From assembly GCA_016906335.1 (NCBI GenBank), contig JADEYG010000003.1:1718138-1738137 (forward strand): 20,000 nucleotides of DNA, read 5' to 3'. Numbering within the stretch: the first letter of the stretch is position 1; every line of letters starts with the position of its first letter. The position numbers and the translations under genes were made by a program. Shown here piece after piece: positions 686 through 20,000 of the stretch. The stretch is from Novakomyces olei. Its lineage: Eukaryota. The notes under the pieces were generated by a model. The model was not told where the DNA came from, made no database searches, and saw nothing but the letters and a program-made list of their open reading frames with translations.

Positions 686-810
<125 letters not shown>

Positions 811-1053: not shown

Positions 1054-1233
1054 TCATGAGCGTAGTTTTCTGTTGTAGTCGTCTAAGGTTTCTTGCGCGT
1101 TTGTCAAGTTGGCTGCGCTTTCCCATGTTCTGTCCTCTTCATTGTAGCCTTTCCAGTGGACGAGGTAGCGTTTGCCAGCTCCTCGTCCGCGATGTCCGCA
1201 TATATATTCGACCTCGTACTCTTTGAGATCGTG
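1054..1233 (-). pseudogene. E1 integrase chromodomain, out of frame with pol
   Basis: Alternate frame reads HDLKEYEVEYICGHRGRGAGKRYLVHWKGYNEEDRTWESAANLTNAQETLDDYNRKLRS*, colinear with the E2 chromodomain. The shift falls in the ATATATA run at about 1234-1240. Confidence 0.92.
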
Positions 1234-4200
1234 TATATATCCGGTACTGTAGTCTCCGTATGATCTCTGTTAAATCGGTCGCCTTTGCTCAATTCTAATT
1301 GTGATTCGTTGAAGACATTATGTATTTGGATATTCGTAGGTAAGTCGACGCGATAAGCTGACACGCCAATTCTTTCAACAATCTTAAATGGCCCAATTCT
1401 TTTGTGATCGAGCTTGGGACTCGGTCGGTCGCTATTGATGTATTTAGGTTGTATCCAAACAAAATCTCCAACGCTATATTCTCGTCCGATTCGTCTCTTT
1501 CGATTGTAGTAAATTGCCATACGTTTGTTGGCTGTGTCCAGCGCTTCTCGGATTCCTTTAAAGACCTCGTTCCAATTCTTCAAACAGTTGTCGGCAGCGG
1601 GGGTTTGTGTTTCCCTGTTGCCCACTGTAAACGTTGTGGGATGGAAGCCGTAATTTGCATAAAATGGGGACAATTTTGTACTGGCGTTCACCGCATTATT
1701 TAAGGCAAATTCTGCAAATGGCAACAGGTCGACCCAATTGTCCTGGTTGTAGTTGGCGTAGCATCGTAAGTACTGTTCCAAGGACTGATTCGTTCGTTCC
1801 GTTTGTCCGTTGGTCTGCGGGTGGTGACTAGTTGACTGGCATAGCTTGATTCCGAGTCCTGTAGTCAGACCCTTCCAAAAATGACTTACAAACCTCGGGT
1901 CTCTGTCGGAAATAATTTCTTTGGGCAGTCCGTGGTACCTAAACACGTGCTGTATAAACAACTGTGCGGTTCCCTGTGCTGTGATCCTAGTATCACATGG
2001 GATCAAATGGCACATTTTTGTCAAACGGTCCACAACCACTAAAATAGAATCCTGGTTCTTCGATTTCGGTAGCTGCACTATGAAATCAATAGACACTGAT
2101 TCCCACGGTTTTTCTGGTATTTGCAGGGAATGCAATTCTCCTGACGGTGATCTTCTCGGTACTTTATTTCTCTTGCAGGTGGGGCACCCCTGTATATAAT
2201 CCTCCACGTCCTTTCGTAGGCCTGGCCATTCATAGTGGCGTTTGATTAACTCCAATGTTCGCGACGATCCGAAGTGTCCCGCCAGCGGGTGATCGTGGTG
2301 GTCGCTCAATATCCTTTTTCTCTCTTCTTCAGTGGGTACAGTGCTTGTTGCTGCTTCCAACTGATTCACGAATATCTCGGGTTTTAGTAATATCTGCTCC
2401 TGGTGTTTTCGGTATGGTTCTGTAGATAAGTCGTTCAAATCTGGTCTCCGGCTAAGTGCGTCGGCTGCACCGTTAAATTGCCCCTTGCGGTATGTAATAT
2501 TAATGTCATAGTCGGCAAGCAGTTCCGACCATCGGGCTTGCCGCCTAGTGAGCTGTTTCGTGGTAGTAAAGGGGATTAAATTCTTGTGGTCCGTATAGAT
2601 CAATGTTGGCTGTTTTTGCCCTTGTACGTAGTGTCTCCATGTTCTAAGGGCCCAGATAATGGCTAGCAGCTCTTTATCATGAATATCATAGTTTATTTCG
2701 GCCATGCTCAGCTTTCGGCTGATAAATGATATTGGCTTGAGTCCTTCAGGAGTAATTTGCGTGAGCACTGCTCCCAGCGCAAAATCGGAAGCATCTGTCT
2801 CGATGATGCATTGCTTCTCGGGGTCGTAGTGGTCCAATAGAACGTTCTTTTCAAATTGCAATTTTAGTGTACGAAACGCATCTTCTTGCACAGTCGTCCA
2901 TTCAAATGGTTTGTTCTTTGATAAAAGAGCCGTGAGTGGTCGTGCTAGCTTCGAGAATCCTTGTATGAAGCGTCTGTAATAGTTACAAAGTCCCAAGAAA
3001 CTCTGTACGTCGTGGATTGATTTCAACTTCGGCCATTTGCGGATTGTTTCTGTTTTATCTTGGCTCATACTAACTCCCTTAGTCGATATTGCATAGCCCA
3101 AAAATTCAACCTGTTCTTTGTGAAACTCACACTTTTCTCCCTTGACACAAAGTCCTCGCCTTTGAAGTCGTCCCAGCACTTCTTTGACGTCTTCGGTATG
3201 TTCCTCCAATGACTTTGAGTAAATAAGAACATCGTCCAGGTAAACTAGGACCTTTCGGTCTAGGATATCGCGGAACACATCGTTCATCAAATCCTGGAAG
3301 GTGGCCGGCGCATTAGTCAATCCAAAGGGCATTACTAAATACTCAAAGTGTCCGAAACGCGTCCGAAACGCTGTTTTCCACTCGTCGCCACGCTTTATCC
3401 TCACCAAGTTATACGCTCCTCTCAAATCGAGTTTTGTAAAATACTGAGATCCTGCGATCTTGTCGATTAGGTCATCGATTCTTGGTAACGGATACTTGTT
3501 TTTGATTGTAATCGCATTCAATTGGCGATAATCCACGCAAAGTCTCAGACTTCCGTCCTTCTTTTTAACGAATAGTATCGGGGCCCCAGCAGGTGATTTA
3601 GACCTGCGTATGAATCCTCTCGCAAGATTCTTTTCAATGTATTCTCTCAGTTCTTCTTGTTCTTCGTGGCTAATGCTGTAAATTGGCCCAAAGGGTATCT
3701 GGGCTCCTTCGACCAGCCTTATCTCGTGGTCGTATAATCCATGTTCAGGAAGCGAATCTGCCTTTTCTTTAGCAAATATTTCCTTGTAGTCCTTGTATTC
3801 TTCCGGGATATCGTCTTGCTTTTCTCTTGTTTCCGTAAGATTTATTTCCAACATCTCCTCTGTACTTTCGTCCTCTTTGAACGACATTGCTCCTTTTCTC
3901 CAATCAATCGAAGGGTTGTTGTCGTGCAACCACTGTATACCAAGAATGATATCATGACGCCCGATATCGGCCATGTAGAATTTTGTAGGCATAAGACGGT
4001 CGTCTATTATCAAAGAAAGGTCTCCCGTTGTAAGTATGACAGGTCCTCCTGGCAATGGCCGTCCGTCCACCACCTGTACAAAGATTGGCTCTTTGATTTG
4101 CTTCATGTCGATGTTTAGTTTATTGACAACCCGCGGGTTAATAAAGTTCAGGTGTGCACCAGAGTCCACCAATGCTCTGAAACTTATTCCGCACAGTTCG

Positions 4201-4268
4201 GCTGTCACCTCAATTTGTTTGTTGTCCTTTCTGATGGGTTTCTCGTCATTTGTGCCCAATGCAGCCAT
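1104..4268 (-). CDS. pol: E1 Pol polyprotein (aspartic protease, RT, RNase H, integrase), probably expressed by -1 frameshift from gag
   Basis: LVDSGA; YLDD; ETDASD/ELLAI/YTDH/ADALSR; HHCC (HDHPLAGH...CPTC); DFI/SDRD/TER; GPF. Confidence 0.97.
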   Translation of the reverse strand: MAALGTNDEKPIRKDNKQIEVTAELCGISFRALVDSGAHLNFINPRVVNKLNIDMKQIKEPIFVQVVDGRPLPGGPVILTTGDLSLIIDDRLMPTKFYMADIGRHDIILGIQWLHDNNPSIDWRKGAMSFKEDESTEEMLEINLTETREKQDDIPEEYKDYKEIFAKEKADSLPEHGLYDHEIRLVEGAQIPFGPIYSISHEEQEELREYIEKNLARGFIRRSKSPAGAPILFVKKKDGSLRLCVDYRQLNAITIKNKYPLPRIDDLIDKIAGSQYFTKLDLRGAYNLVRIKRGDEWKTAFRTRFGHFEYLVMPFGLTNAPATFQDLMNDVFRDILDRKVLVYLDDVLIYSKSLEEHTEDVKEVLGRLQRRGLCVKGEKCEFHKEQVEFLGYAISTKGVSMSQDKTETIRKWPKLKSIHDVQSFLGLCNYYRRFIQGFSKLARPLTALLSKNKPFEWTTVQEDAFRTLKLQFEKNVLLDHYDPEKQCIIETDASDFALGAVLTQITPEGLKPISFISRKLSMAEINYDIHDKELLAIIWALRTWRHYVQGQKQPTLIYTDHKNLIPFTTTKQLTRRQARWSELLADYDINITYRKGQFNGAADALSRRPDLNDLSTEPYRKHQEQILLKPEIFVNQLEAATSTVPTEEERKRILSDHHDHPLAGHFGSSRTLELIKRHYEWPGLRKDVEDYIQGCPTCKRNKVPRRSPSGELHSLQIPEKPWESVSIDFIVQLPKSKNQDSILVVVDRLTKMCHLIPCDTRITAQGTAQLFIQHVFRYHGLPKEIISDRDPRFVSHFWKGLTTGLGIKLCQSTSHHPQTNGQTERTNQSLEQYLRCYANYNQDNWVDLLPFAEFALNNAVNASTKLSPFYANYGFHPTTFTVGNRETQTPAADNCLKNWNEVFKGIREALDTANKRMAIYYNRKRRIGREYSVGDFVWIQPKYINSDRPSPKLDHKRIGPFKIVERIGVSAYRVDLPTNIQIHNVFNESQLELSKGDRFNRDHTETTVPDIYTISKSTRSNIYADIADEELANATSSTGKATMKRTEHGKAQPT

Positions 4269-4276
4269 CTCCTGGA

Positions 4277-5182
4277 TTAGGCGTTTGCTTTTTCCGAGTC
4301 GTCCCTTGTTTCAAATTTCTTCGTTGTTCCAGTCCGCGTCTCTTCGCGGCAATGCTTTGCTATATGCCCCTTTTTGTGGCATCTATAGCACTCGACAGGC
4401 TTTTCGTGCTTGAACTTTCTCTCGCCGTCTCTTGACAATGTCGGTGTTCTCATAACGTCGATTTCCATTGGCATCTCTCTTGTTCCCGGCGATGGTTCTC
4501 TTCTGTAGATTCTGGCTCGGTCGCGGTTTCTCTCAAACAGCCTGTTGTCGATTCTAATGCTCACATCGACAAGGGCTTTCAAATCTCTAGGCGATTCTGC
4601 TCGTGCCAGTTCATCCTTGACACTGTCCTTAAGGCCCTCATAATACTGCGCTGCTAGAGCCTCGTCGTTCCACGCAAGAAAGGCGCTCAGTCTTTCAAAT
4701 TCAGCTGCATAATGCGATGCTGAGCTTTTTTGTTTCAACTGCCTAAGCTGTCTCTGTGCCGTTCGCTTCATGTCTCTATCTCCGAACATGCGTTGTAGCT
4801 CGTTGCAAAACAGCGAAAAATCGTCGAGTAGTTCTCCATCCTCTCGCAAAATATGCGGCTCCCACCAACGAAAAGCGGCCCCACGCAAGTACGATGCTGC
4901 AAACAGAACCTTTTGTCTCTCGGTCGTGTATCTTTCTCTCTGCACATCGGTTATCATTTTCGTCTGCATGATAAATTCATTCAGTTTCCCTCGCTCTCCG
5001 GAAAATAATGGCGGAGGCGCCATCTTCGGCTCGCGGCCGGCAGACACACGTGTGCTGTTCTCATCACTAGTCACTCTTGCTAGTCTCTCCGTCAGCGCTG
5101 TGTTCTTTTGTTCCAAGAACTTCAGCCTGTCGGTCACTTGTGAGCAAAACTTTTGTAACTCCTCCATACTCGCGGGGTCCAT
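4277..5182 (-). CDS. gag: E1 Gag (capsid plus CCHC zinc knuckle)
   Basis: PKMAPPPLFSGER, FAASYLRGAAFRWW, YYEGLKDSVKDEL, PMEID, CYRCHKKGHIAKHC; first in-frame ATG at 5182 (the ORF track starts at a GTG at 5215). Confidence 0.95.
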   Translation of the reverse strand: MDPASMEELQKFCSQVTDRLKFLEQKNTALTERLARVTSDENSTRVSAGREPKMAPPPLFSGERGKLNEFIMQTKMITDVQRERYTTERQKVLFAASYLRGAAFRWWEPHILREDGELLDDFSLFCNELQRMFGDRDMKRTAQRQLRQLKQKSSASHYAAEFERLSAFLAWNDEALAAQYYEGLKDSVKDELARAESPRDLKALVDVSIRIDNRLFERNRDRARIYRREPSPGTREMPMEIDVMRTPTLSRDGERKFKHEKPVECYRCHKKGHIAKHCREETRTGTTKKFETRDDSEKANA

Positions 5183-5223
5183 CGTTCCCACCGTAAATGT
5201 TCTTCCTAGTCCCACTAAAACGG

Positions 5224-5232
5224 ACGCTTAGC
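5224..5232 (-). promoter_or_regulatory. E1 self-priming primer-binding site GCTAAGCGT
   Basis: Begins 2 nt after the 5' LTR and lacks TGG; perfectly complementary to minus-strand LTR ACGCTTAGC (5375-5367), which lies about 33 nt downstream of TATAAGTA (5408-5401). Confidence 0.82.
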
Positions 5233-5234
5233 AC

Positions 5235-5531
5235 TGTCAGTGCGTGTCACAGGCGAACCTCGACGCCTGAGTACAACTGCTTAATTGCACGCCGCTTATC
5301 GTAACGGCTAGCGGGAAAAAGGAGAATACAATAGAATAATTGCACAACAGTTATATTCACTAGTTGGCTAAGCGTAAGTAAAGTAGATACCAGAAGGCCC
5401 TACTTATACTTCCGCTTAGCGTTCTAAATTACTAAGCAAAACTATCTAGAATATTCTATACTAAAAACTAATGCCTGCACACTAATTGCACGAGTGCAAC
5501 TTCTGTGCCAGGCACATGTCAGCTCCTGACA
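5235..5531 (-). repeat. E1 5' LTR
   Basis: Direct repeat of 310-606. Confidence 0.98.
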
Positions 5532-6486: not shown

Positions 6487-6843
6487 ATTGACGGCAAGGG
6501 TAGGGTTGTTGGATTTATAAAATATAATTATTATACAATATGGGCTGCACATATTATAGTTATCTGATAATATAATATAAATATTATAGAGAGAGCACCA
6601 TAGTAATAGAGTATAATAAGAAATACGTCAGAAAAATAAGAAAAATTAAGAGTGTGTTGTCCATGTGTAGAGGTGACAAAAAATCGAAAGAACAAGCGTT
6701 TTTACAAAAAGTATATGGTTGGAAAGAGGGGAGCAGTAGGAGTGTAAATATATATTTGTTTACAAGATTGGATTAGTAGGTATAAAGATATAGGGCTTTA
6801 AAGATTCATAAAAAGCTCATGATGCCCCAGGATGTATTTTATG
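6487..6843 (+). repeat. Subtelomeric ~355-bp repeat, copy R1
   Basis: Colinear with 18509-18864 with scattered substitutions; starts ATTGACGGCAAGGGTAGGGTTG. Confidence 0.93.
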
Positions 6844-6859
6844 GGTCGTGTCTATTGTA

Positions 6860-7930
6860 ATAATTTATTGTAAAGTAATGTATGTATAATAATGTATGGC
6901 AGAGTAATATATGGTATAATAATCTATTGTAAAGTAATGTATGTATAATAATGTATGGTATAATAATGCATTGTAATATAATGTATTGTATAGTAATGTA
7001 TGTATAATAATGTATGGTATTATATTGTATTGTAAAGTAATGTATGTATAATAACACCTGCATATGTGATTGACGGCAAGGGTAGGGTTGTTGGATTTAT
7101 AAATATAACATTGCTACACAAGATGGCCTGCATATATTATAGTAATGAGATAATATAATGATAGTATTAAAGAAAGAGCAACTAGATATTAGGAATGAGA
7201 ATAACATTATAAAAATTGAGAAAAATTAAGTATATTAAAATAATGTATTATAATTTATTGTAAAGTAATGTATGTTATAAGGTAGAATAATGTACTGTAA
7301 AGTAATGTATGTATAATAATGTATGGTGGAATAATGTATGGAGGAATGTATTTATAATAATGTATGTATAATAATGTATGGTGGAATAATGTATGGAGGA
7401 ATATTGTATGGAGTAGTGTATAATAATATATGGCAGTATAATGTATGGACGAACAATGTATGGAGAAATAATGTAAGGAATGATAATGTGTGTTATAATA
7501 ATGTGTGGTAGTATAATAATGTATAAGGCAGTTATTATAAGGCAGTTATTATATGGCAGTAGTTATTATAAGGCAGTTATTATAAGCAGTTATTATATGG
7601 CGGTTATTTGGCAGTTAATGTATGGGATCATAATGTATGTGGAATTAATAAGGCAGTTATTATAAGGCAGTAGTTATTATAAGGCAGTTATTATAAGTAG
7701 TTATTATATGGCGGTTATTTGGCAGTTAATGTATGGGATAATAATGTATGTGGAATTAATAAGGCAGTTATTATAGGGCAGTTATTATAAGGCAGTTATT
7801 ACATGGCGGTTATTTAGTAGTTAATTTATGGGATAATAATGTATGTGGAAGTAATATATGGAGGAATGGAAAGTATGGGATGATCATTATATCGCAGCTA
7901 ATATATTGCGGTTTATTACACGGCAGTTGG
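6860..7930 (+). repeat. C-poor degenerate satellite (ATAATGTATGG/GTAAAGTAATGTATGT units, then GGCAGTTATTATA units with a ~100-110 bp higher-order repeat)
   Basis: Motifs recur many times; GGCGGTTATTT...GTTAAT.TATGGGAT recurs near 7600, 7710 and 7805. Confidence 0.85.
7069..7230 (+). repeat. Partial, more diverged third copy of the R repeat
   Basis: ATTGACGGCAAGGGTAGGGTTGTTGGATTTATAAA identical to the R1 start, then degenerate similarity up to GAAAAATTAAG. Confidence 0.85.
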
Positions 7931-8194
7931 TTATATAGCAGTTGCTACAAGAATAGCTATAATTGCGTGATGTTTATTTGCTATGCTGAAGGTGCAAGTT
8001 CGTTCGCTCAATAATAGGATTAGTATTTGATTCAGCTCTAGTGTAGAAAATAAAGTTTATCACAATTAACTTGTACGAAATTGTTTGCGTTTGATAAAAT
8101 ACAAAGTACATCAATTTTGGTTGTTGTAGATTATACAATGGATATGGGAAACGAGAGAGCCAAAAACTTAAATAGGTAGTAAAGTAAAATGTAT

Positions 8195-8219
8195 GGGCAG
8201 GGCAGGGCAGGGCAGGGCA
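8195..8219 (+). repeat. (GGGCA)5, potential G-quadruplex
   Basis: Five GGG tracts with 2-nt loops. Confidence 0.85.
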
Positions 8220-8571
8220 GATATCCGGTGGACAAATGCAGTTTTAAATATAGATATCTAGTGTTTCGATATCTGCGAATATATGGCAGTTGGTTATACG
8301 GTAGTTATTATATGGTGTTGGACATGTTAGTAATTTGTATGGTTCATTATCATGTGGCGATTATGTATGTATAATAATGTATGGGGGAATAGTGTATTGC
8401 AGTTATTATATTGCAGTTATTATATGGCGGTTAATTATGTTGCGGTTAATATATGGCAGTTTATTGTATGATAGTAATTATATTGAATTTAATATTTGAA
8501 TTAATATAAAATTATTATAAATTTGAATACTATTAATACTTAATGAAATTAAACTGATAATTGTATAAATC

Positions 8572-8726
8572 ATTATATTATATTATATTATATTATATTA
8601 TATTATATTATATTATATTATATTATATTATATTATATTATATTATATTATATTATATTATATTATATTATATTATATTATATTATATTATATTATATTA
8701 TATTATATTATATTATATTATATTAT
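8572..8726. repeat. (ATTAT)n pentanucleotide microsatellite, about 31 units
   Basis: Perfect tandem array. Confidence 0.95.
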
Positions 8727-8949
8727 AAAATATTATATAAAAAAAATTTGTATGGTACAGTATCATATAGCGGTAAATGTATGGTATAATGTATGGGAAT
8801 AGGCCAGCTAATATATGGCGGTTTATTATATTGACGTAGGCTTTGTTTATGCGGAGCTATTCTGACAATAAAAGTCGCATTTAGTAGAATTCAATTCAAT
8901 TAAAACTATCCGAAGCAAAGTACATTTAGTTGTATTAAGCTAAGTCGTG

Positions 8950-9685
8950 TTAGTTAGAGAAGTTTAAACTTAGATCTTCGTTAAATGCGCGTAGGCGTGT
9001 TAGCCAAATCGTAAGCTTGTAGTCGCTGAAGGATGGAATTGGGGCATCATTCAGGCGGCTATAACATGTTTTATCACTAAATAAAGAAAGATCAGACACA
9101 AAGGCATTGATACTGCTCATATCTGAGTGGCTTGCAACAGGCCCATACCAGTTAATTTTCTCAACTGCCGCTACGTTTTGTTCTCCATTTTTCTTTTTCC
9201 GGGATGCAGCCAATGTATTATTGTCATATTGCGGAATTATCCATAGATATCTCGCCGCAGTTATTGGCAAACGATCCATAAACATTTCAGCCCACACTGA
9301 ACCAGCCTGAATTTTAAGAATATTATAAAGCTGTCTTGAAAGCACAACAAATCGCTCCTTGTCCCACGTAGCGCTTCCTCTCGTACGCCAATCAAATAAC
9401 CCCTTCAGTTTACCGGTCCAAAGCATATTTTCGGGCGTGAGCTCTTTTCGAGAAACTCGTGACTCTATCACACGAGGTAAAAATCCAAGCGCTTGCTGTA
9501 TGGTTTTACAATCCATCCCAATTCGACCCTCGGCCATGTACTGACTATTCTCCGTATATGGCAAACAGTAATTGTCTTTCTTGGCTCTATCGTGAATTAA
9601 ACGCCATATGTCGGCCATGTATTGTCCAATCACCATTTCGTGACAGATCTTCAACACTTTGGCACGTTTTGTAGTTAGTGCACAG
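8950..9685 (-). pseudogene. 3' part of a 901-aa uncharacterised protein gene interrupted by E2
   Basis: Rejoined junction reads ...ENDLRDC-ALTTKRAKV-LKICHEM..., in frame with both ORF 16107-18125 and ORF 8950-9657. Confidence 0.93.
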
Positions 9686-10077
9686 TGTTACGGTGCGCTA
9701 TATGAGGCGCTAGCTAGCGCTGAAGATAGCGCTTTTACATCCTTTAATTTGTTTTGTTTCACTTTATTTTGTGTTACGACTTCTATTTTTAATTAGTTCT
9801 ATTTATAACTCTTAGCTTCTATTTTTAGATAGCAACTTAGTTAGTTTAATTAGTTTAGTTTGATTAGTTTCTCGGGCAAAGCCCCACGGAGCGTCATAAG
9901 AATGGGACACTCCCCTCTTATGTTCGCTACGTGTAATCAAATCTTGGTGTGCAATATTTTGGTTTTCTATTACTAGGTTCCCTACTTTCCACGTATCCTC
10001 AACAGAGCCAGCGTGAGATCTGGCATATTCACCTTATTGCACCTTTACGACTTTTTGGAAGTAAAGCCCCCATAACA
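9686..10077 (+). repeat. E2 5' LTR
   Basis: Direct repeat of 15759-16150 with no differences seen by eye. Confidence 0.98.
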
Positions 10078-10079
10078 GT

Positions 10080-10088
10080 ATTACACGT
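10080..10088 (+). promoter_or_regulatory. E2 self-priming primer-binding site ATTACACGT
   Basis: Begins 2 nt after the LTR and lacks TGG; complementary to LTR ACGTGTAAT at 9929-9937, which lies about 34 nt downstream of TATA-like CATAAGAA. Confidence 0.82.
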
Positions 10089-10115
10089 CCACGATTCTGA
10101 TTCGAGGATACAACG

Positions 10116-11129
10116 ATGTCGGCAGCGGATTTTGAGCAGTTGAATAGGTTTCTTGAGCAAACCACAGCGCGTTTGGAACGGCTGGAGAAAGAGAACCGCA
10201 CTCTCGCTGACCAACTCGGTATCGCTAAGGGAACCGTGCAGGAACGAGGGTCGAAGGAGCCTAAAATGGCACCACCACCATTCTTTTCCGGCGAACGCTC
10301 GAAAACTGGTGAATTTTTGACCTGCGTGAGGATGATTATTGGCAGTCAACCAGATCGCTATCGCTCGGCGCGACAGCAAGTGATGTTTGCGGCGTCTTAC
10401 CTTCGCGGAGCGGCTTTCAGATGGTTTGAGCCTCATGTGAGAAACGAAAATGAAGTTATTCTCGACGATTTTGATTGTTTTTGTGACACGCTCGAGAGGA
10501 TGTTCGGAGACCGGGACGTCAAACGAACAGCAGAGCGAAGTATCCGTCTCTTGAGACAGAGAGGATCTGTATCTCAGTATGCGACTGAGTTTGAAAGATT
10601 GAAATCTTGGCTAACCTGGAACAATGATGCATTAGTTGCTCAGTTCTACGATGGGTTGAAAGAGAATATCAAAGATGAGTTGTCAAGGAGAGAAATGCCT
10701 GAACTTTTGGGCACCTTGATTGATGAATATGTGAAGATCGATGGCCGTTTGTTCGAGAGAAACAAGGCTAGACAGCGATTTAGTTACAGTGAAAGGGAGT
10801 ATGCAAGACCTCTGCATTGTGGAAGTACACCGATGGAGATTGACAATCTGATGACAAGACGGATTGATGACGAAGAGACAAGCGTTAATTATGACGCTAC
10901 CAAACGCCGATACTCGCGCCCGCAACAAACTGATACAAGAAACTATGGCGCTAAGTATGGCGCTATGGAGCGCAGTTCAAAGCCAAACCAGAGCAAGGAC
11001 GTTACCTGCTATCGGTGCTACGAGAAGGGACATGTGTCCAAGAATTGCCAAGCGCCTTTTCCAAAGCAGTCGTTTACGAATGGAAATGTGCCAAGCAAGA
11101 AAGTACATGATTTAAAAGATCGGACCTAG
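10116..11129 (+). CDS. gag: E2 Gag (capsid plus CCHC zinc knuckle)
   Basis: EPKMAPPPFFSGER, FAASYLRGAAFRWF, PMEID, CYRCYEKGHVSKNC; clearly homologous to E1 Gag. Confidence 0.96.
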   Translation: MSAADFEQLNRFLEQTTARLERLEKENRTLADQLGIAKGTVQERGSKEPKMAPPPFFSGERSKTGEFLTCVRMIIGSQPDRYRSARQQVMFAASYLRGAAFRWFEPHVRNENEVILDDFDCFCDTLERMFGDRDVKRTAERSIRLLRQRGSVSQYATEFERLKSWLTWNNDALVAQFYDGLKENIKDELSRREMPELLGTLIDEYVKIDGRLFERNKARQRFSYSEREYARPLHCGSTPMEIDNLMTRRIDDEETSVNYDATKRRYSRPQQTDTRNYGAKYGAMERSSKPNQSKDVTCYRCYEKGHVSKNCQAPFPKQSFTNGNVPSKKVHDLKDRT

Positions 11130-11152
11130 AGACCGAGGTGGTGTCGCTAGGT
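11111..11152 (+). promoter_or_regulatory. E2 -1 ribosomal frameshift signal (U_UUA_AAA, 6-nt spacer, hairpin)
   Basis: Heptamer is in X_XXY_YYZ phase with gag; the pol frame opens immediately after TGA 11108-11110; stem ACCTAG-A-GAC/GTC-G-CTAGGT at 11124-11152. Confidence 0.8.
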
Positions 11153-14100
11153 GGTATTGAGCGAAAGCCACCAGATAAGAAACTGTCAAGCGGAAAGCTT
11201 GAAGTGTTATGCAAATTTGAAGAAAAGGAATTGCACGCTTTGCTAGATAGCGGTGCAGACGCAAATTTTATACATCCAAGAGTGATATGGCGTCTAAAGA
11301 TTGAGACAAAGAGACTAGAGAGTCCTATTTTTGTGAAAGTAGCCGATGGCCGAGCAATGGCATCTGGTCTAGTACGAAGAACGACCAAGGATATACCTAT
11401 TGAAGTGCAAGGTATTAGGTCGACTGAGATTTTTTATGTGGCGCAAATTGGACACCATGATGCGATCTTAGGTATCCCATGGTTGACCAAGAACAATCCC
11501 AATATTGATTGGATTACAGGACGCCTGACGTTACGACAGCCTACGCTGGAATCTATTGAACTTAACAGTATAAACGAGATTATTCAAGACAGCGAGGATG
11601 ACTGTCAGATTGGAAACGAGAAAATTGAATTGCCTCCAGAATATGAGGAGTTCAGAGATGTTTATGAAGAACCAAAGAACGACGTGCTACCACCGCATCG
11701 ATCGTACGACCACGAGATTGAACTACTGAAGGACGCAAAAATACCTTTTGGTCCCGTTTACAGTGTTAATCAGAAAGAACAAGAATACCTACGCGAGTAC
11801 TTAAATGAGAACCTCGCGAAGGGATTTATTAAACGCTCTAAGTCACCGGCAGGAGCACCAGTGCTATTTGTGCCGAAGAAGAATGGAGAATTGAGATTAT
11901 GTGTCGACTATCGGGGACTGAATAATATTACTATCAAAAACAAGTATCCAATTCCCCGGATTGACGATTTGATCGACAAGCTAGCCGGAGCCAAGATCAT
12001 GACAAAGATCGACTTGAGAGGTGCCTACAACTTGATAAGAATCAAAAAAGGTGATGAATGGAAAACAGCCTTTAGGACAAGATATGGCCACTTCGAATAT
12101 CGCGTCATGCCCTTTGGACTGACGAACGCACCCGCGACATTTCAAGCTCTCATGAACGATGTGTTTAGAGACTTGCTTGATTACAAAGTTTTAGTATATC
12201 TTGATGATATTCTAATATTTTCAAAGGACAAAGAAACGCACGTGAAAGATGTTCAGGAAGTACTACGACGCCTAAGAGCCAACCAGTTGTATGCAAAAGG
12301 CGAAAAATGCGAGTTTCATCGCACCAAAGTTGAATTTCTCGGCTTTATATTATCTACAGATGGAATATCAATGTGTGAAGAGAAACGAGATCCCATTCTG
12401 ACTTGGGAAAGACCAAAATCAGTCCACGATGTTCAAGTGTTTCTTGGATTTTGCAATTATTACCGAAGGTTTATCAAAGACTTTGCAAAGCTAGCGCTGC
12501 CGCTAACGCAGGCGCTACGAAAGAATAAAACATTCGAATGGACTGAAAGGCAACAAGGAAGTTTCGATGACTTAAAGAGTTGTTTTAAGAAAGACGTTAT
12601 GTTGCGACATTATGACCCGTCAATGGAATGTATCCTAGAGACAGACGCTTCAGACTTTGCGCTGGGCGCTGCTTTGACGCAAGGACCAGAAGACCACCGT
12701 CGACCTGTGGCATTTATCAGTAGGAAGCTCACACCGGCCGAAGTGAACTACGATATCCACGATAAGGAATTACTCGCAATTGTTTGGGCATTCAAAACCT
12801 GGAGACATTACCTCCAAGGTCACCCAAACCCAATAGTTGTCTACACGGATCATCGAAACCTACAAACATTCAGAACTACAAAGCAATTGTCTCGAAGACA
12901 AGCAAGATGGTCTGAGATTCTGGCCGAATACGATTTTATTATAAGTTACCGAAAAGGAGCTGCTAATGGAGCCGCTGATGCCCTTAGTCGATGCTCCTCT
13001 CTAAACGATTTAAAGACTAATACATACGAACAAGAGCAAAACAGGATATTGCTCCCCGATGAGAAATTTACAGATACAAATTTGGAATTGAATGCGGCTG
13101 AGACGTTGGCCAACCAATTGCCAGAAGGAGTTTTAAAGGACTTTGTACCAGAAGAAAACAGAAAGGAAGTCCTGGCCAACGCACACGATCACCCGCTAGC
13201 TGGGCATTTTGGTGTAGCTAAGACTTTGGCTCTTGTGCAAAGACACTATACTTGGCCTGGAGTTGTCAGAGACGTTACTGACTACGTGAAAGCTTGTACT
13301 ACTTGCAAAAGAAACAAAGTGAGTCGCCAAAAGAAAACAGGATTGTTGAACCCTTTGCCTACTGCCTCACGACCATGGATTTCTGTGTCGCTCGATTTTA
13401 TTGTCAAATTACCAGAGTCCCAAGGGTACGACAGTATTCTTGTTGTGGTGGATCGATTCTCAAAAATGGTTCATCTTATCGCCTGCAAGGAAACAATTGA
13501 CGCAAAAAGTTTGGCTAATTTGTTTCTTCGTGAAATTGTTCGACTACACGGTCTACCAGACGAAATTATATCAGACCGCGATCCAAGATTCGTCAGTAAA
13601 TTTTGGACCTGCCTTACAGCGCAACTTGGCATAAAATTACACAAGTCTACGAGTCATCATCCACAGTCAGATGGACAAACAGAAAGGATGAATCAGACTT
13701 TGGAACAGTATTTGAGATGCTACTTGAATTATTTACAAAACAACTGGATTCATTTGTTACCATTTGCCGAAATCGCAATGAACAACTCTACGAGTGCAAC
13801 TACGAAAGCCTCGGCTTATTTTACAAACTATGGATTTCAACCACGTTTTACGCTGACTCCTACAATATCGGAGAATCCCTCAGCGAACAGTGTCGTTCAG
13901 GACTGGAACGAACATTTTAAAAGAATTATGGAAATGATTACGAAAAACTCTGAAAACATGAAACGTTTTTACGACCGCAGAGTACGTCAGGGACCACAGT
14001 ATCAATCTGGAGATTTAGTATGGATACGCAAGAAACACATCAGAAGCGATCGCCCCAGTGATAAATTTGATCACACTCATATAGGACCATTCAAAGTTCT

Positions 14101-14458
14101 CGAATCCGTTGGACGATCGGCTTACCGCATCGAATTACCGCACCACATAAAGATTCACAATGTGCTTAACGAGACTTTACTTGAGCCCTTTGTACCGGAC
14201 CGATTCAACCGTGATCCAACTGATCAGATCGTACCAGATGTCCTACAAGAAGTTAATGAATACGAAGTGGACTATATTGTTGATCACAAAGGAAGAGGCA
14301 AGAATATCCGTTACCTGGTTCACTGGAAAAACTACCCAGTGGAAGACCGAACATGGGAGCCATACACAAACCTCTCACAAGCACAAGGTGCTGTGTCCGA
14401 CTATCATTCGCGACTTACCGATAGCGTTAACACTCGCGCTACAGAGCGCCATATATAA
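11138..14458 (+). CDS. pol: E2 Pol polyprotein (PR, RT, RNase H, IN, chromodomain); the frame is open from 11111
   Basis: LLDSGA; YLDD; ETDASD; HHCC; DDE; GPF; chromodomain EYEVDYIVDHK...YLVHWKNYPVEDRTWEPYTNL. Confidence 0.98.
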   Translation: MVSLGGIERKPPDKKLSSGKLEVLCKFEEKELHALLDSGADANFIHPRVIWRLKIETKRLESPIFVKVADGRAMASGLVRRTTKDIPIEVQGIRSTEIFYVAQIGHHDAILGIPWLTKNNPNIDWITGRLTLRQPTLESIELNSINEIIQDSEDDCQIGNEKIELPPEYEEFRDVYEEPKNDVLPPHRSYDHEIELLKDAKIPFGPVYSVNQKEQEYLREYLNENLAKGFIKRSKSPAGAPVLFVPKKNGELRLCVDYRGLNNITIKNKYPIPRIDDLIDKLAGAKIMTKIDLRGAYNLIRIKKGDEWKTAFRTRYGHFEYRVMPFGLTNAPATFQALMNDVFRDLLDYKVLVYLDDILIFSKDKETHVKDVQEVLRRLRANQLYAKGEKCEFHRTKVEFLGFILSTDGISMCEEKRDPILTWERPKSVHDVQVFLGFCNYYRRFIKDFAKLALPLTQALRKNKTFEWTERQQGSFDDLKSCFKKDVMLRHYDPSMECILETDASDFALGAALTQGPEDHRRPVAFISRKLTPAEVNYDIHDKELLAIVWAFKTWRHYLQGHPNPIVVYTDHRNLQTFRTTKQLSRRQARWSEILAEYDFIISYRKGAANGAADALSRCSSLNDLKTNTYEQEQNRILLPDEKFTDTNLELNAAETLANQLPEGVLKDFVPEENRKEVLANAHDHPLAGHFGVAKTLALVQRHYTWPGVVRDVTDYVKACTTCKRNKVSRQKKTGLLNPLPTASRPWISVSLDFIVKLPESQGYDSILVVVDRFSKMVHLIACKETIDAKSLANLFLREIVRLHGLPDEIISDRDPRFVSKFWTCLTAQLGIKLHKSTSHHPQSDGQTERMNQTLEQYLRCYLNYLQNNWIHLLPFAEIAMNNSTSATTKASAYFTNYGFQPRFTLTPTISENPSANSVVQDWNEHFKRIMEMITKNSENMKRFYDRRVRQGPQYQSGDLVWIRKKHIRSDRPSDKFDHTHIGPFKVLESVGRSAYRIELPHHIKIHNVLNETLLEPFVPDRFNRDPTDQIVPDVLQEVNEYEVDYIVDHKGRGKNIRYLVHWKNYPVEDRTWEPYTNLSQAQGAVSDYHSRLTDSVNTRATERHI

Positions 14459-14746
14459 CGCCCACTATTCTATTATTTTATTATTATTCTTATCCGCACT
14501 ATTATTACTATTATTCTTATTATCTCTTATTATGAGGATTATCATTTATTATGGAATTACTTAAATTCTTCTTACTATATGTTAGCGAAAATATACACAG
14601 CTTATATTTCGTTATAACAGATTTAATATATTATTAACTATGGTGCTTGCAACATTACTTATTGTCCTTATCCTCTGGGCGGGATCTTCGTTAAAAATAT
14701 TTTCACGGCGCTACACACACGGTTACAGAACCCAATATCTAACGCG

Positions 14747-15748
14747 ATGACGGAGCTCACGCGTCCGAGAGAGGAGAGTGGCGAAGAGCCCAGTGGTCGG
14801 AAGCGCAGACAGCGCAACGGAGGTTCCTTTAGATGCGAAGTGTGCGATCAGCCCTTCTACTTCGCAAAGGATTTGAGAAAACACGAACGGTTGTTCCATT
14901 CGATCAACCTTACGGAAATCATCAATGGGTGGAAGAAGAATGCAGATCTGGCTGTCAACTACGATATCGGTTTATTGGCTTTAAAACGCGCTTTCGAATC
15001 TCCGCATCAACTAATCGAAGTGGAGAAACAGGACCCGAAATTAACTATAGATCAGATCAATGAAGTGCTTCTGAAGGAGAGACAGTGTATTCTAATGAAA
15101 ACTTATGCACGAACGGCCGATCCAGATCTGACAGTGACAAACTTTGTGACTAGCCTTATCGACAGTACAAAGGAGAAGATTGCTATCTACAACATCAGTG
15201 GCGGAAACGAGCTTGTTCGGCCAGACAAGAGGCATGTTGGAATCTCGGATTTTTGGCTACACGCGATAACGCCCGCGTCTACCATCACCGACGTGCATGT
15301 GGACAACGTATTGCTCGGGCATACAATTTATTGTTTATCCGGGAAAAAGCTATTGCTTCTGTGGCCTGGTTCTGACTACAATCTGACACAGTTTGCCCCA
15401 TACCATCGGGTAGGTGGAGATTTATACCTACCAAAGGCTATCAAGGAATTGCGCGATTTGAAATTGGCTATATTGGAGACGGGGGATTTTGTCATACTTC
15501 CGGCGGGGTCACTTCATGCGGTGATCACCATTGAGACCTCGGTGATTACCGGTTATATGTTTGTGGACAAGTGCGCCGATTGGCAAAGACTAGCGTTTTG
15601 GGACGCGAAAGCTGCTCGCGATGATGATGCGGTGGCCGCAGTTTTTACGGAGCACCAGGAGGCCTTGGAGCTGCTATCCTCGTGCAACCTGCTCACCCCA
15701 AATATCGAAGAAAAGGTCAAGGCAGGAATTGAATATCTCGAGTCTTGA
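14747..15748 (+). CDS. E2 ORF3: NLS + C2H2 zinc finger + JmjC-domain 2OG/Fe(II) dioxygenase (putative histone demethylase)
   Basis: RKRRQR; FRCEVCDQPF...LRKHERLFH (C30, C33, H46, H51); T181-D-V-H184-V-D186, GKK201LLLLWP, GDFVILPAGSLH257AVIT. Confidence 0.9.
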   Translation: MTELTRPREESGEEPSGRKRRQRNGGSFRCEVCDQPFYFAKDLRKHERLFHSINLTEIINGWKKNADLAVNYDIGLLALKRAFESPHQLIEVEKQDPKLTIDQINEVLLKERQCILMKTYARTADPDLTVTNFVTSLIDSTKEKIAIYNISGGNELVRPDKRHVGISDFWLHAITPASTITDVHVDNVLLGHTIYCLSGKKLLLLWPGSDYNLTQFAPYHRVGGDLYLPKAIKELRDLKLAILETGDFVILPAGSLHAVITIETSVITGYMFVDKCADWQRLAFWDAKAARDDDAVAAVFTEHQEALELLSSCNLLTPNIEEKVKAGIEYLES

Positions 15749-15758
15749 GGCGGGGTAG
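15747..15758 (+). other. E2 polypurine tract (GAGGCGGGGTAG), overlapping the ORF3 stop codon
   Basis: Purine-rich run abutting the 3' LTR. Confidence 0.8.
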
Positions 15759-16150
15759 TGTTACGGTGCGCTATATGAGGCGCTAGCTAGCGCTGAAGAT
15801 AGCGCTTTTACATCCTTTAATTTGTTTTGTTTCACTTTATTTTGTGTTACGACTTCTATTTTTAATTAGTTCTATTTATAACTCTTAGCTTCTATTTTTA
15901 GATAGCAACTTAGTTAGTTTAATTAGTTTAGTTTGATTAGTTTCTCGGGCAAAGCCCCACGGAGCGTCATAAGAATGGGACACTCCCCTCTTATGTTCGC
16001 TACGTGTAATCAAATCTTGGTGTGCAATATTTTGGTTTTCTATTACTAGGTTCCCTACTTTCCACGTATCCTCAACAGAGCCAGCGTGAGATCTGGCATA
16101 TTCACCTTATTGCACCTTTACGACTTTTTGGAAGTAAAGCCCCCATAACA
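15759..16150 (+). repeat. E2 3' LTR
   Basis: Direct repeat of 9686-10077. Confidence 0.98.
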
Positions 16151-18125
16151 CACAGTCTCTCAAATCATTTTCCGTTTCAACTATTGGCCCCTTAATCAAA
16201 TCGACCAAATACTTATCCCGATTTGCTCTGTAATCCAGAACTCGTATAATGTCTGTATTTCCCTTCAACTTCTTCTGTAAAGCCGACGTTACAAACGGCA
16301 AGCGAGGCAACAACACTGGCTTGAACATGAGCAAACCTGCTTCTATCAAGTCGCTGTCCAGAAATGCTAAACTTGCCTCCGATAATGACTCTTTCAAGTT
16401 GAGTCCATTGTAAGTAAGGCGGTTATTCCTTCGACGAAATTCTTTTAAATAAATATCAGAATATTTAGTAGCATCTTCACTGGCCAGGAAAATGGACAGT
16501 ATTCTCACATACGCTGTTAAAAGTGGTCCCCTAAGCAATTGAGTGACTTTTTCATCATTGCTCATACTAGCGATGGCTTCTATGGGCATCATCAATCGGC
16601 TGATTTCAGCCTCCAAGAAATCCGCCAAAACTTCGGTTTTTACTCTGTAATAGCTGGAGGGACATGGAACTTCAGATTCTGATTCCAATGTCTCCAATAC
16701 AGAGTAGTCGTCTAAGCTGAAGTCTAGTATTTTATCATATGTTATTCTAAACTCTCTTCTCACACCAAAACTTGACTTTTTTGAAGCCGTGAGGCTTTCA
16801 CAAATCCTCTGCTTTGTGGCAACGTACGCTGAGACGACAGAATTTCGAGACAGTGGCTTTCCAAAGCGACTATTTTCAGCATGGAACTCGCTGAACATGT
16901 CATTTGACATGTATAGAGACTCGAAATGAGGCAGTCCGAACGACCTATGGCCTTTCTTAGGAGTAGTAATAACATCTTTAAAGCTGTTATAAGCTTTCAA
17001 TTGGGCGAGTCCAGTAGACTGCCGTAAAACACATCGGATATTTGTAACTGCGTCCACCGAGCCAGCTTCGCCCAAAAAATAAAAAGGATAATATTGGAAG
17101 CCATAGCGTGATGCAGCTGGCCGTGGGCTCAAGGTAGATGAAAGGAAACCAATCAAAGGATCTTTTTTATACAAAAGAGTAGTCGGCTCATCGGAATCCG
17201 GGACATCTTCAACTCCAATATCAATGAATATGTCTGAGGCCTTAATTTTATTGTCGTTCCCGTCACGACTCCAATTGATCATCTCACTCAACTTTTCATC
17301 AAATCGCATAATAGTATCATAAAGACTCTTCGTCTTGTACGACAACTTTGTGTCGTGAGCTTCACAAATTATAAATGGATCCTTAAATTTGGAGAGGTCG
17401 GGGTCTGTTGAGTCTAACAATTGTAGAATTTCGTTCCACAAACGGTCGAAATAGATGTTTTTGAGATAAGCACCGTTTGGAAAGGCCGACAGTGATCCAG
17501 GCGACTCTTCCCTCGCTACTTTCGACTTGTAAAGGGCTTCCTCAAAGCTTCTGGGCATATGCTGCAGAACATCCCAAGGAAGAACCCTTTTACAAGCCGG
17601 AAGCAATATTTTATTAATCCAAACTGCCATTTCATCGTTGGTTGGGTACACCTCCGTCGATTGTTTAGCCCGCACAGACCCAAAGCAAACCTTGACCCAC
17701 GTTCCTCGAACATTATTCGCGACAGCCAAACGGATAAAGTAGAAATGCTTGTAAGCACTTGGGTTCCGACCCAGCGGCCTGACATGGAGCTGCTGGTTTT
17801 TGACCGACAGAAAGGGGATGTAAAAATGTAAAACTCCATCTTGTTTGAAACTTCCGAGATTGGAACTTCCAATGATAAGACTGTCGATGTCATAAACACG
17901 ACGAATATTAACATCTTCTAAAGAGCCTTTTTCTAAAGTTATCGAGTGTCTTTTGTCCCCATGACAACCGGTAAGCAGCCTTTCCCAATCCACCGCGTCT
18001 TCTCCAAACTCAGAGATACAGGGCTGAAATATTGGCCATTGGGTTTTATCCATAATATTTTTAAGCCAGACAGCATGAAGCTCTATAGGACACTGCCCAA
18101 TTTGGGTGTTAATGTCACTCGTCAC
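16151..18125 (-). pseudogene. 5' part of the 901-aa uncharacterised protein gene; now reads into the E2 LTR and stops at 16107
   Basis: Long intronless ORF; 1975 + 731 nt = 2706 nt = 901 aa + stop after removing E2 and one TSD copy. Motifs VYDIDS, FIDIGVE, KAYNSFK, FGVRREFRI. Confidence 0.9.
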
Positions 18126-18157
18126 ATTGTACTGAATACCCTAGATATATTCAAACC

Positions 18158-18490
18158 GGAATTATGGCGAAATTCCATTTTTATGTAATGTGATTCTTAT
18201 TATGTATAATTCTAGTCAGGGTTTTCGCTTTTCCTTTACGCCATAATTCCATTTCGAAAAATAATTAATGTATGAGGGGGGGGTCATGCCAATTTCCTTA
18301 GCATTCCCGCGAATTATGGCGTAATTCTAATAAGAATGGTAGGAGAAACGTGGAGGCAGGGTTTTTTAGGGAGAATTTTCCGACTAAATTCCAAATTATA
18401 ATATGGGAAATTGCGCGGGAATGCTAAGGAAATTGGCATAAACGGGGGTAAGAACGACGTAAGAGCAAAAATAGTTTCCGCCTTAATTCC
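18158..18490. repeat. Inverted-repeat cluster upstream of the 901-aa gene
   Basis: Perfect 26-bp IR at 18286-18311 / 18414-18439; (G)GAATTATGGCG motif at 18158(+), 18239-18250(-), 18311(+), and a 1-mismatch copy at 18479-18490(-). Confidence 0.9.
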
Positions 18491-18508: not shown

Positions 18509-18864
18509 ATTGCGGCGAGGGTAGGGTTGCTGAATTTATAAAATATAATTATTATACAAGATGGTCTACACATATTATAGCTATCTGATAATATAATAAA
18601 AATATTATAGAGAGAGCCCCATAGTAATAAAGTATAATAAGAAAAACGTCAGAAAAATAAGAAAAATTAAGAGTGTGTAGTCCATGTGTAGAGGTGACAA
18701 AACGTCGAATGAACAAGTGTTTTTACAAAAAGTGTATGGTTGGATAGAGGGGTGCAGTAGGAGTGTAAATATATACTTGTTTACAAGATTGGATTAGTAA
18801 TTATGGAGATATATGGGTTTAAAGATTTATAAAAAGCTCATGACGGCGCAGGATGCATTTTATG
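18509..18864 (+). repeat. Subtelomeric ~355-bp repeat, copy R2
   Basis: Direct repeat of 6487-6843. Confidence 0.93.
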
Positions 18865-18869
18865 TGGCA

Positions 18870-19690
18870 TTATAATAATGTATAGTAGAATAATTTATTG
18901 TAAAGCAATGTATGTATAATAATGTATAGTATAATAATGTATGGTAATTTAATGTATAGGAATAATGTATGTATAATAATGTATGGTATAATAATGTATG
19001 GTATAATAATATATGGTAGAATAATGTATTGTAAAGTTATTGTAAAGTAATGTATGTATAATAATGTATGGTAGAATAATGTATTGTAAAGTTATTGTAA
19101 AGTAATGTATGTATAATAATGTATGGAGGAATATATAGGAATAATGTATGTATAATAATGTATGGTATAATAATGTATGGTATAATAATATATGGTAGAA
19201 TAATGTATTGTAAAGTTATTGTAAAGTAATGTATGTATAATAATGTATGGAGGAATAATGTATGGAGGAATAATGTATGTATAATAATGTGTGGTATAAT
19301 AATATATGGTAAAATAATGTATTGTAAAGTGAATAATGTATGTATAATAATGTATGGTATAATAATGTATTGTAAAGTAAAGTATGTATAATAATGTATG
19401 GTAAATAATATATGGTAGAATAATGTATTGTAAAGTTATTGTAAAGTAATGTATGTATAATAATATATGGTAGAATCATATGGTATAATAATATATGGCA
19501 TTATAATGTATGGTATAATAATATATGGTGGAATAATGTATGGAGGAATAATGTATGTATAATAATGTATGGTATAATAATATATGGGGGATTAATGTAT
19601 GGGAATAATGTATGGGGAATTAATGTATGGGGGATTAATGTATGGAGAATAATGTGTATGGGGGAATAATGTATGGGGGAATAATGTACG
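18870..19690 (+). repeat. Telomere-associated C-poor satellite (ATAATAATGTATGGT family)
   Basis: Almost no C on the + strand; includes a >100-bp exact duplication with a period of about 179 (18957 vs 19136). Confidence 0.9.
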
Positions 19691-19899
19691 GTGATATTTA
19701 TTTAGGGTTAGGGTTATTTATGATCGAATGGAGTAGAGAATTATATTGAGATTGTTGGATATGAAAGGGAGGGAGAGAGTTGGAGTTGAGATAGGAAGTA
19801 AAGGGAAATAGAAAATGGGAATAGAGTAATGTAGAAGTTGCCAAAAAAATGTTTGATAAAGGACAGTTATTGAAAGGAAGATTGTTTTAATATTATGTC

Positions 19900-20000
19900 A
19901 GGGTTAGGGTTAGTTAGGGTTAGTTAGGGTTAGTTAGGGTTAGTTAGGGTTAGTTAGGGTTAGTTAGGGTTAGTTAGGGTTAGTTAGGGTTAGTTAGGGT
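19900..20000 (+). repeat. Telomeric array, 10-bp unit TTAGTTAGGG
   Basis: About 10 perfect tandem units running to the window end; G-rich strand points 5'->3' outward. Confidence 0.93.

Follow-up and report, generated by a model that had tools for sequence, protein, structure and literature searches.

How does a gene of the histone-demethylase type come to lie inside a retrotransposon whose integrase ends in a putative heterochromatin-reading chromodomain, and what might it do there? The question is raised by a stretch of 20,000 nucleotides of Novakomyces olei (GenBank assembly GCA_016906335.1, contig JADEYG010000003.1, positions 1,718,138 to 1,738,137 of the forward strand), here called the window, whose own coordinates are used throughout. 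The window is a chromosome end with two long terminal repeat (LTR) retroelements, E1 and E2, among satellites. One of these, E2, is a Ty3/gypsy chromovirus that is intact and has transposed very recently, and after gag and pol it carries a third gene, open reading frame 3 (ORF3), whose predicted product joins a single C2H2 finger to a JmjC domain. An earlier note on this DNA, made from its letters, had proposed that E2 pairs a reader of silent chromatin (the chromodomain) with an eraser (the JmjC protein), landing through the one and de-repressing itself through the other. We are highly confident of the anatomy of E2 and ORF3 and of the domain identities described below; the function of ORF3 is treated more tentatively.

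E2 is a single recent insertion of 6465 bp made by an integrase, and everything between its LTRs moved together. The two LTRs show zero differences across all 392 bp (in the self-comparison, the match covers 9684-10077 at an offset of 6073), and the element lies between the two copies of a 5-bp target-site duplication (TSD), CACAG. Excision in silico of E2 with one copy of CACAG leaves a single uninterrupted minus-strand frame of 906 amino acids, running from 18140 to 8953. It is the matching TSD, together with the exact restoration of this host frame, that identifies the whole unit as one insertion and, because the TSD flanks the full 6465 bp, ORF3 is part of the mobile unit. Indices of repeat-induced point mutation and of CpG decay are normal for both E1 and E2.

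The coding content of E2 is that of a chromovirus: besides paired LTRs with a TSD, it has the Pfam domain order protease, reverse transcriptase, RNase H, integrase along pol (RVT_1, E 4.2e-39; RT_RNaseH, 7.6e-39; Integrase_H2C2, 2e-22; rve, 2e-9; SH3_Tf2-1, 7.1e-15), with Chromo (2.2e-13) last at residues 1042-1092 of 1106, the integrase's C-terminal end. The CCHC knuckle of gag scored under the Pfam cut-off. The Chromo match (PF00385) reached 50.4 bits against a cut-off of 25.1, and a phmmer search of the PDB with the chromodomain returned CDY1 (1.2e-9) and Drosophila HP1 (1kna, 5.6e-8), as well as CDYL, MPP8, SUV39H1 and Clr4. CDY1, HP1, MPP8, SUV39H1 and Clr4 are readers of methylated lysine 9 of histone H3 (H3K9me). 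In the alignment with 1kna, three aromatics of E2 (Y in EYEV, W in HWK, Y in NYP) face their HP1 counterparts (Y in EYAV, W in KWK, Y in GYP). These YWY cage positions define the group I chromodomains, according to the part of the source available (PMC3605345). All three aromatics of the group I (HP1-like) cage, Y, W and Y, are present in E2, as the earlier note had observed, and every other group I chromovirus feature that was examined was also found. Judged from sequence, the E2 integrase terminates in an HP1-type chromodomain with a complete predicted aromatic cage. Its closest relatives, among the 120 listed, are 35-48% identical.

The nature of ORF3 emerges from its family, its modelled fold and its catalytic residues. 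On the single sequence, Pfam gave sub-threshold matches only (zf-C2H2, E 0.0013; Cupin_8, E 0.04, 14.3 bits against a cut-off of 27.4), and matches in the PDB were weak (ceKDM7A 0.039; KDM2A 0.26). A language-model search for look-alikes placed clusters named 'JmjC domain-containing protein' at the top (0.96). A word-indexed protein search found no match to ORF3 alone at E 1e-3 or better and, with a 12-sequence profile, found P0003 only. An exhaustive HMMER search with ORF3 gave 104 proteins at E 1e-3 or better (best 6.5e-14), 95 of them covering the core (residues about 170-290) and 9 the finger only, and a family profile was made from ORF3 and 48 of the 95 core-matching proteins (49 sequences). 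Against the PDB, this profile matched KDM2A (3.2e-22), ceKDM7A (2.5e-19), PHF8 (4.5e-16), KDM7 (3.8e-15) and PHF2 (6.6e-13), with JMJD6 at 6e-4; 14 of the 19 PDB sequences that it found come from the KDM2/KDM7/PHF2/PHF8 clade (3e-22 to 1e-12).

An AlphaFold2 model of ORF3, made with the 49-member alignment (predicted local distance difference test score 84.5, predicted template modelling score 0.81), has the double-stranded beta-helix fold of the JmjC 2-oxoglutarate oxygenases. Foldseek ranked ceKDM7A, KIAA1718, JHDM1A, PHF8 and PHF2 at the top (from 5e-12). In VIA-align the first 23 rows were all PHF2, KDM2A, PHF8 or KDM7 (Z 16.8-18.6; root-mean-square deviation 2.9-3.8 A over 237-257 aligned residues, model residues 70-333), the best being PHF2 (Z 18.6, 2.9 A, 245 residues) and KDM2A (Z 18.4); beyond the clade came JMJD5 (Z 15.4) and UTY/JMJD3 (14.8). 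The metal triad H184, D186 and H257 and the 2-oxoglutarate contacts T181 and K201, functional roles that we take from known structures, all line up with their equivalents in ceKDM7A and KDM2A. Within the 12 closest sequences, H184, D186, K201 and H257 are invariant (12/12) and T181 nearly so (90% or more); across all 49 sequences, the counts are 48 for H184, 48 for D186, 44 for K201, 43 for H257 and 40 for T181. The family profile, the fold and the retained catalytic residues together uphold the claim of a JmjC cargo beside pol, and assign the predicted JmjC domain of ORF3 to the KDM2/KDM7/PHF2/PHF8 clade rather than to other JmjC groups. Pfam detected no PHD, CXXC or F-box/LRR module in ORF3, which is therefore not a KDM2/KDM7/PHF orthologue but a member of a separate family of small proteins within the clade. 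The N-terminus opens with a basic stretch, GRKRRQR, followed by the C2H2 finger, and no PxVxL-like motif was seen in ORF3 by eye. The whole is predicted to be a small nuclear-type protein with a JmjC domain whose catalytic residues are intact.

The combination of finger and JmjC domain recurs in four other family members (P0001, P0004, P0009 and P0025), and ORF3 is therefore a whole family member, not a fragment. The alignments place it in a fungal finger-JmjC family that is mostly missed by Pfam. Those members that have a name are from Tilletia and Agrocybe; a contig of 2.98 Mb carries the Agrocybe member, and a contig of 51 kb one member from Tilletia horrida. Among the Tilletia entries (P0005, P0020, P0022, P0025 and cluster mates), 10 of 11 are on contigs of 1.5-7.0 kb. 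Contigs this short are typical of unassembled repeats, and in Tilletia the family may be carried by repeats or transposons. ORF3 had no match in metagenome contigs or viral contigs, nor had P0016 in viral contigs.

The contrast with E1 shows what is particular to E2. The two pol proteins are 57% identical. The earlier note had taken E1 as a comparison lacking the JmjC gene, and E1 indeed has no ORF3; it also encodes, however, a chromodomain with an intact Y/W/Y cage, in another frame than pol, so that it is ORF3 and not the chromodomain that distinguishes E2 from E1. A 1-nt shift near an ATATATA run, at about 1240-1225, puts the E1 chromodomain out of the pol frame; this may reflect a genuine inactivating slip, an error of sequencing or a frameshift that the element uses. 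At the place equivalent to ORF3, between pol and the polypurine tract (PPT), E1 has about 450 bp of low-complexity sequence (607-1100, minus strand), which on the plus strand reads as a T run, (TTA)31 and TA-rich repeats.

Sequencing runs bear on whether ORF3 travels with the element. In run X1 (DNA, Logan contigs), one contig covers 12415-15279, that is pol, spacer and the start of ORF3, with 1 differing letter in 2865. Word depth in this run, which is not a copy number, was 15 for the pol-ORF3 contig, 20.6 for the 5' half of E2, about 50 for the LTR and 4-6 for the flanking host frame, and beyond either LTR end (loose ends at 9685 and 16151) X1 contigs continue into unrelated sequence. Depth and loose ends fit several ORF3-bearing copies of E2 at other sites. 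Run X3 also has pieces of E2, including ORF3 sequence at 14819-15099. Carriage of ORF3 to new sites is thus indicated by the TSD and restored frame in the window and by the other flanks and higher depth in X1. X5 and X6, two RNA-seq runs that carry the same species label, had 0 reads over all 9301 bases; the host frame was included in these and was equally without reads, and the runs are therefore no test of ORF3 expression. The features discussed here are collected in Table 1.

Table 1. Features of the E2 locus and its surroundings, in window coordinates (aa, amino acids; nt, nucleotides; PBS, primer-binding site).
Feature	Position	Strand	Remarks
E2, whole element	9686-16150	+	6465 bp, complete Ty3/gypsy chromovirus
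TSD CACAG, left copy	9681-9685	+	identical 5 nt at 16151-16155
E2 5' LTR	9686-10077	+	392 bp, TG...CA, identical to 3' LTR
PBS region	10080-10088	+	9 nt, ATTACACGT, complementary to LTR 9929-9937
gag	10116-11129	+	337 aa; Retrotrans_gag E 7.8e-14, Ty3_capsid 3.1e-8
T_TTA_AAA heptamer in gag frame	11111-11117	+	pol frame open from 11111, -1 relative to gag
pol	11138-14458	+	1106 aa; protease, reverse transcriptase, RNase H, integrase (H2C2, rve, SH3_Tf2-1), chromodomain
Chromodomain with Y/W/Y aromatic cage	14261-14413	+	pol residues 1042-1092, Pfam PF00385
AT-rich spacer	14459-14746	+	288 nt, 30% GC; pol stop to ORF3 start
ORF3	14747-15748	+	333 aa; basic stretch, C2H2 finger, JmjC domain
ORF3 C2H2 finger, single	14828-14899 (aa 28-51)	+	C-x2-C-x12-H-x4-H, modelled beta-beta-alpha
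ORF3 JmjC domain	aa about 70-333	+	family profile, fold and catalytic residues
PPT-like run	15747-15758	+	GAGGCGGGGTAG; overlaps ORF3 stop, abuts 3' LTR; E1 counterpart GAAGGGGGGGTAA
E2 3' LTR	15759-16150	+	from self-comparison of the window
TSD CACAG, right copy	16151-16155	+	directly 3' of the 3' LTR
Host frame, C-terminal part, split by E2	8953-9680	-	frame restored on removal of E2
Host frame, N-terminal part, split by E2	16156-18140	-	frame restored on removal of E2
E1, second chromovirus, without ORF3	310-5531	-	LTRs 297 bp, identical; TSD GGAGC
E1 chromodomain	about 1221 to 1054	-	EYEVEY...VHWKGY..., Y/W/Y intact, other frame than pol
Telomere-type repeat (TTAGGGTTAG)n	19900-20000	+	window end

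How does E2 compare with known systems? With the group I chromoviruses (MAGGY of Magnaporthe, Tf1/sushi and Tcn1-like elements) it shares the layout of LTR, gag and pol and the C-terminal chromodomain with a Y/W/Y cage, and with the Tf1 type, in addition, an SH3_Tf2-1 domain and a 9-nt complementarity between PBS and LTR; it differs from the group I chromoviruses in the third gene after pol. The predicted fold of ORF3 is that of KDM2A, KDM7A/ceKDM7A, PHF8 and PHF2 (the JHDM1/PHF clade), and its TxxHxD...GxK...H aligns residue for residue with ceKDM7A and KDM2A. ORF3 differs from these proteins, however, in being only 333 aa long, in having one N-terminal C2H2 finger in place of PHD, CXXC, F-box or LRR modules, and in an identity of 11-15%. 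We take Epe1 and DMM-1 to be members of the same JmjC clade, and any kinship to ORF3 closer than clade level is likewise our assumption. As far as the available text of two papers goes, Epe1 of S. pombe and DMM-1 of N. crassa, both JmjC proteins of fungi, keep H3K9me heterochromatin within limits (PMC7192584; PMC9023284). Compared with ORF3 by description and not by sequence, they are much larger, are recruited by HP1 and are host genes, whereas ORF3 is borne by an element. Epe1 is described, in the portion of the report at hand, as having a tyrosine, Y370, for the last metal-binding histidine (PMC7192584). ORF3 keeps that histidine; in the 49-sequence alignment, the column of H257 holds the same Epe1-type tyrosine in six members, and part of the finger-JmjC family may be non-catalytic in its action.

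Mobile elements that carry genes acting on silencing marks have been described before, and in this respect E2 has company. The accessible part of one report lists VANC from the VANDAL elements of Arabidopsis, TET/JBP carried by DNA transposons of fungi and SET genes of oomycete Harbinger/MuDR elements, and in that part TET/JBP is encoded by no retrotransposon (PMC12730594); another, equally in the part available, describes an ALKBH-type demethylase of N6-methyladenosine (m6A) in orchid Ty3/gypsy elements (PMC9289625). Unlike E2, none of these (VANC, TET/JBP, orchid ALKBH, SET) is a JmjC gene of the histone-demethylase type in a retrotransposon, and we found no description of a JmjC-bearing retrotransposon in open-access papers and preprints, a search outside which the Repbase reports lie. 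Transposon enzymes directed against their own silencing are thus known for DNA methylation (TET/JBP, VANC) and for RNA methylation (orchid Ty3/gypsy); in E2 a histone-demethylase-type gene lies inside a retrotransposon, paired with an integrase that has a putative heterochromatin-reading chromodomain. An intact, apparently multi-copy E2 beside a related E1 without ORF3 also offers a natural experiment: can an element pick silent chromatin as a place to land safely and yet still be transcribed? Finally, the work defines, in fungi, a family of small finger-JmjC proteins that has escaped the standard domain libraries.

What might ORF3 do for E2? In the mechanism that we propose, the cage-intact chromodomain would tether the pre-integration complex to H3K9-methylated nucleosomes, for example in this subtelomere; the chromodomain of MAGGY reportedly binds H3K9me2/3 and directs integration. 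For its expression ORF3 would probably have a transcript of its own, beginning in the AT-rich spacer, although this route is a guess, and it would enter the nucleus to act as an anti-silencing factor encoded by the element. It would either demethylate repressive histone lysines over E2 or antagonise heterochromatin proteins without catalysis, as has been proposed for Epe1. The finger and the basic region would supply local targeting, and local targeting would in turn resolve the paradox of a global eraser that destroys the landing mark of its own integrase. The clade of the ORF3 JmjC domain includes H3K9me2 demethylases such as PHF2, as stated in the part of the source available (PMC11315909). 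We put this anti-silencing role forward tentatively, as a possibility that falls somewhat short of being probable. A bolder version, which seems to us rather doubtful, would make E2 the first retrotransposon with an anti-silencer of its own of the histone-demethylase type: by analogy with VANC, it would land and then unlock, the chromodomain parking E2 in tolerant H3K9-methylated chromosome ends and the basic region and finger steering ORF3 to the element's own LTR repeats, so that only that patch is opened. In a wider form, hinted at by the short contigs of 10 of the 11 Tilletia entries, the whole Pfam-invisible finger-JmjC family would be largely transposon-borne.

Several observations weigh against this proposal. 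Demethylation by ORF3 across the whole genome would wear away the mark that the integrase itself is supposed to read, and neither Epe1 nor DMM-1 has demethylase activity in vitro, as far as the available part of the source states (PMC7192584). KDM2A, an H3K36 demethylase, is the top match of the family profile, so that H3K9 is not the sole candidate mark; ORF3 could just as well act on H3K36me, in the manner of KDM2, or have no substrate. ORF3 did not reach the gathering cut-off of the JmjC-type Pfam families (PF02373, PF08007 or Cupin_8), and the JmjC_2 cut-off was passed by only two of the 38 homologues scanned. The identical LTRs mean that E2 is too young for an intact ORF3 to indicate selection. 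E2 landed in an open frame of 906 aa, a single site cannot show a bias in targeting, and survival of insertions in gene-poor chromosome ends would give the same picture as targeting. No JmjC or cupin family accompanied any of the 120 relatives listed for the E2 integrase, 116 of which have a chromodomain. The only contig found with P0002 as query (L001, 7.8 kb) was free of repeats, its five neighbouring ORFs matched no Pfam family, and the 203 nt upstream of the gene contained no pol end; since that gene lies at the contig edge, L001 neither shows nor excludes a retroelement context. No diverged relative of E2 carrying ORF3 was found, either among the 120 integrase relatives or at L001. Lastly, neither the leader (10078-10400) nor the end of pol (14300-14470) contains a consensus GTRNGT donor, and the splice acceptors ahead of ORF3 are trivial YAG only. 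The lack of a donor led us to drop an env-like spliced mRNA for ORF3 in favour of the proposed internal promoter.

Other explanations must therefore be weighed beside an anti-silencing role. ORF3 may be a passenger, a host finger-JmjC gene that entered between pol and the PPT (the reverse transcriptase may, for instance, have switched templates to a host mRNA), does nothing to help E2 and has not yet decayed. Its GC content at third codon positions (0.545) departs from that of pol (0.406) and gag (0.491), as a captured gene might, and it is a single frame without introns; family members occur as apparently ordinary fungal genes on the 2.98-Mb Agrocybe and 51-kb Tilletia horrida contigs, L001 has no retroelement domains, and E1, a 57% relative, manages without ORF3. 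The identity of the LTRs would also have left no time for purifying selection to show. However, the insert is a tidy one, a complete frame with its own ATG and a stop that abuts the PPT, and all its catalytic residues are intact, while the depth and loose ends in X1 fit several copies of ORF3, kept, that is, through repeated transposition; an extra 1.3 kb is, moreover, costly to a 5.2-kb element. On balance, we consider a passenger unlikely, albeit an explanation to be taken seriously. Much less can be said for an assembly artefact or a chance juxtaposition, in which two LTRs bracket an unrelated host gene or the contig is chimeric: subtelomeres are hard to assemble and the 1-nt frameshift in the ATATATA run of E1 could be a sequencing error, but the 5-bp TSD with exact restoration of the 906-aa frame bespeaks one integrase-made insertion, the X1 contig runs independently through pol, spacer and ORF3 with its 1 difference in 2865, and X3 has ORF3 sequence as well. 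We judge such an artefact exceedingly improbable.

It is also conceivable, if fairly improbable in our estimation, that ORF3 has an activity from which E2 benefits, but one other than erasing H3K9me. Its target might then be H3K36me2/1 (as for KDM2), H3K27me2 or H4K20me1 (as for KDM7/PHF8), or it might hydroxylate a host restriction factor, Gag or integrase, with an effect on transcription, splicing, RNA export or integration and not on the mark that the chromodomain reads. The best profile match to KDM2A (3.2e-22) and the structural tie of KDM2A with PHF2 (Z 18.4 versus 18.6) leave room for this, as do the lower-scoring matches to the JmjC hydroxylases JMJD5, TYW5, FIH and JMJD6 and the absence from ORF3 of PHD, CXXC and F-box, the modules by which KDM2/KDM7 choose their substrates. 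There is also a precedent in the orchid Ty3/gypsy lineage, which acquired another 2-oxoglutarate dioxygenase, the m6A RNA demethylase, as far as the available text goes (PMC9289625). Set against this alternative is the wide gap in the sequence matches between KDM2/7/PHF (1e-22 to 1e-13) and the hydroxylases (6e-4), with which the structural comparison agrees, 23 rows of the clade preceding the first other family; and Epe1 and DMM-1 both act against H3K9me heterochromatin, by the accounts in the accessible parts of the two papers (PMC7192584; PMC9023284).

The setting of E2 is subtelomeric, as the earlier note had said: the end of the 3' LTR (16150) lies 3.75 kb from the telomere-type repeat at about 19900, and E2 is placed between two arrays of a 15-nt satellite (TATAATAATGTATGG and variants) at 6853-8740 and 18871-19692. 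That note's picture of an insertion among satellites needs amending in that the insertion itself lies inside the open 906-aa frame and not in satellite DNA. The frame matched no Pfam family and had no usable Atlas look-alike; it may be a subtelomeric gene of unknown kind or another mobile element.

The boundaries of the E2 genes are compact. The frame of ORF3 is open from 14627, with no ATG ahead of 14747, and ORF3 ends 10 nt ahead of the 3' LTR, its stop codon falling within the PPT-like run. The slippery heptamer T_TTA_AAA stands exactly where the -1 frame of pol opens, 12 nt upstream of the gag stop. As regards priming, the complementary stretch in the PBS region begins two nt past the 5' LTR and is paired with its LTR counterpart in both the minimum free energy and the centroid folds of 9929-10095. 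A 9-nt stretch after the LTR that is complementary to a site within the LTR is common to both elements (in E1 it begins 1 nt after the 5' LTR). No tRNA-type primer site was evident after the 5' LTR of E1 or E2; a tRNA scan found no tRNA gene in the window, and an Rfam scan of the window was likewise empty. Tf1 is a self-priming retroelement. By analogy, the complementarity suggests Tf1-style self-priming which, if true, would place the start of E2 transcription near 9929. The U3 part of the LTR contains tandem motifs of 16 nt (CTTCTATTTTTAACTTAG) and 14 nt (TTAGTTTAGTTTAA), at 9780-9870 and again at 15853-15943, which are candidate regulator-binding sites, possibly for the ORF3 finger.

Some features of the chromosome end itself may be added. 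The repeat at the window end has a 10-nt unit, TTAGGGTTAG, and is not plain TTAGGG. In run X3, one contig joins plain CCCTAA repeats directly to sequence from 18141, and in run X1 the bin 17919-18200 has a depth of 48; what lies from about 18141 onward is therefore a telomere-adjacent, multi-copy element, differing from sample to sample. Furthermore, a 300-bp direct repeat is present at 6492-6791 and 18513-18812 (92% identity), each copy being followed by an array of the 15-nt satellite, a pattern that suggests duplication of a subtelomeric module, with one copy on either side of the frame that bears E2.

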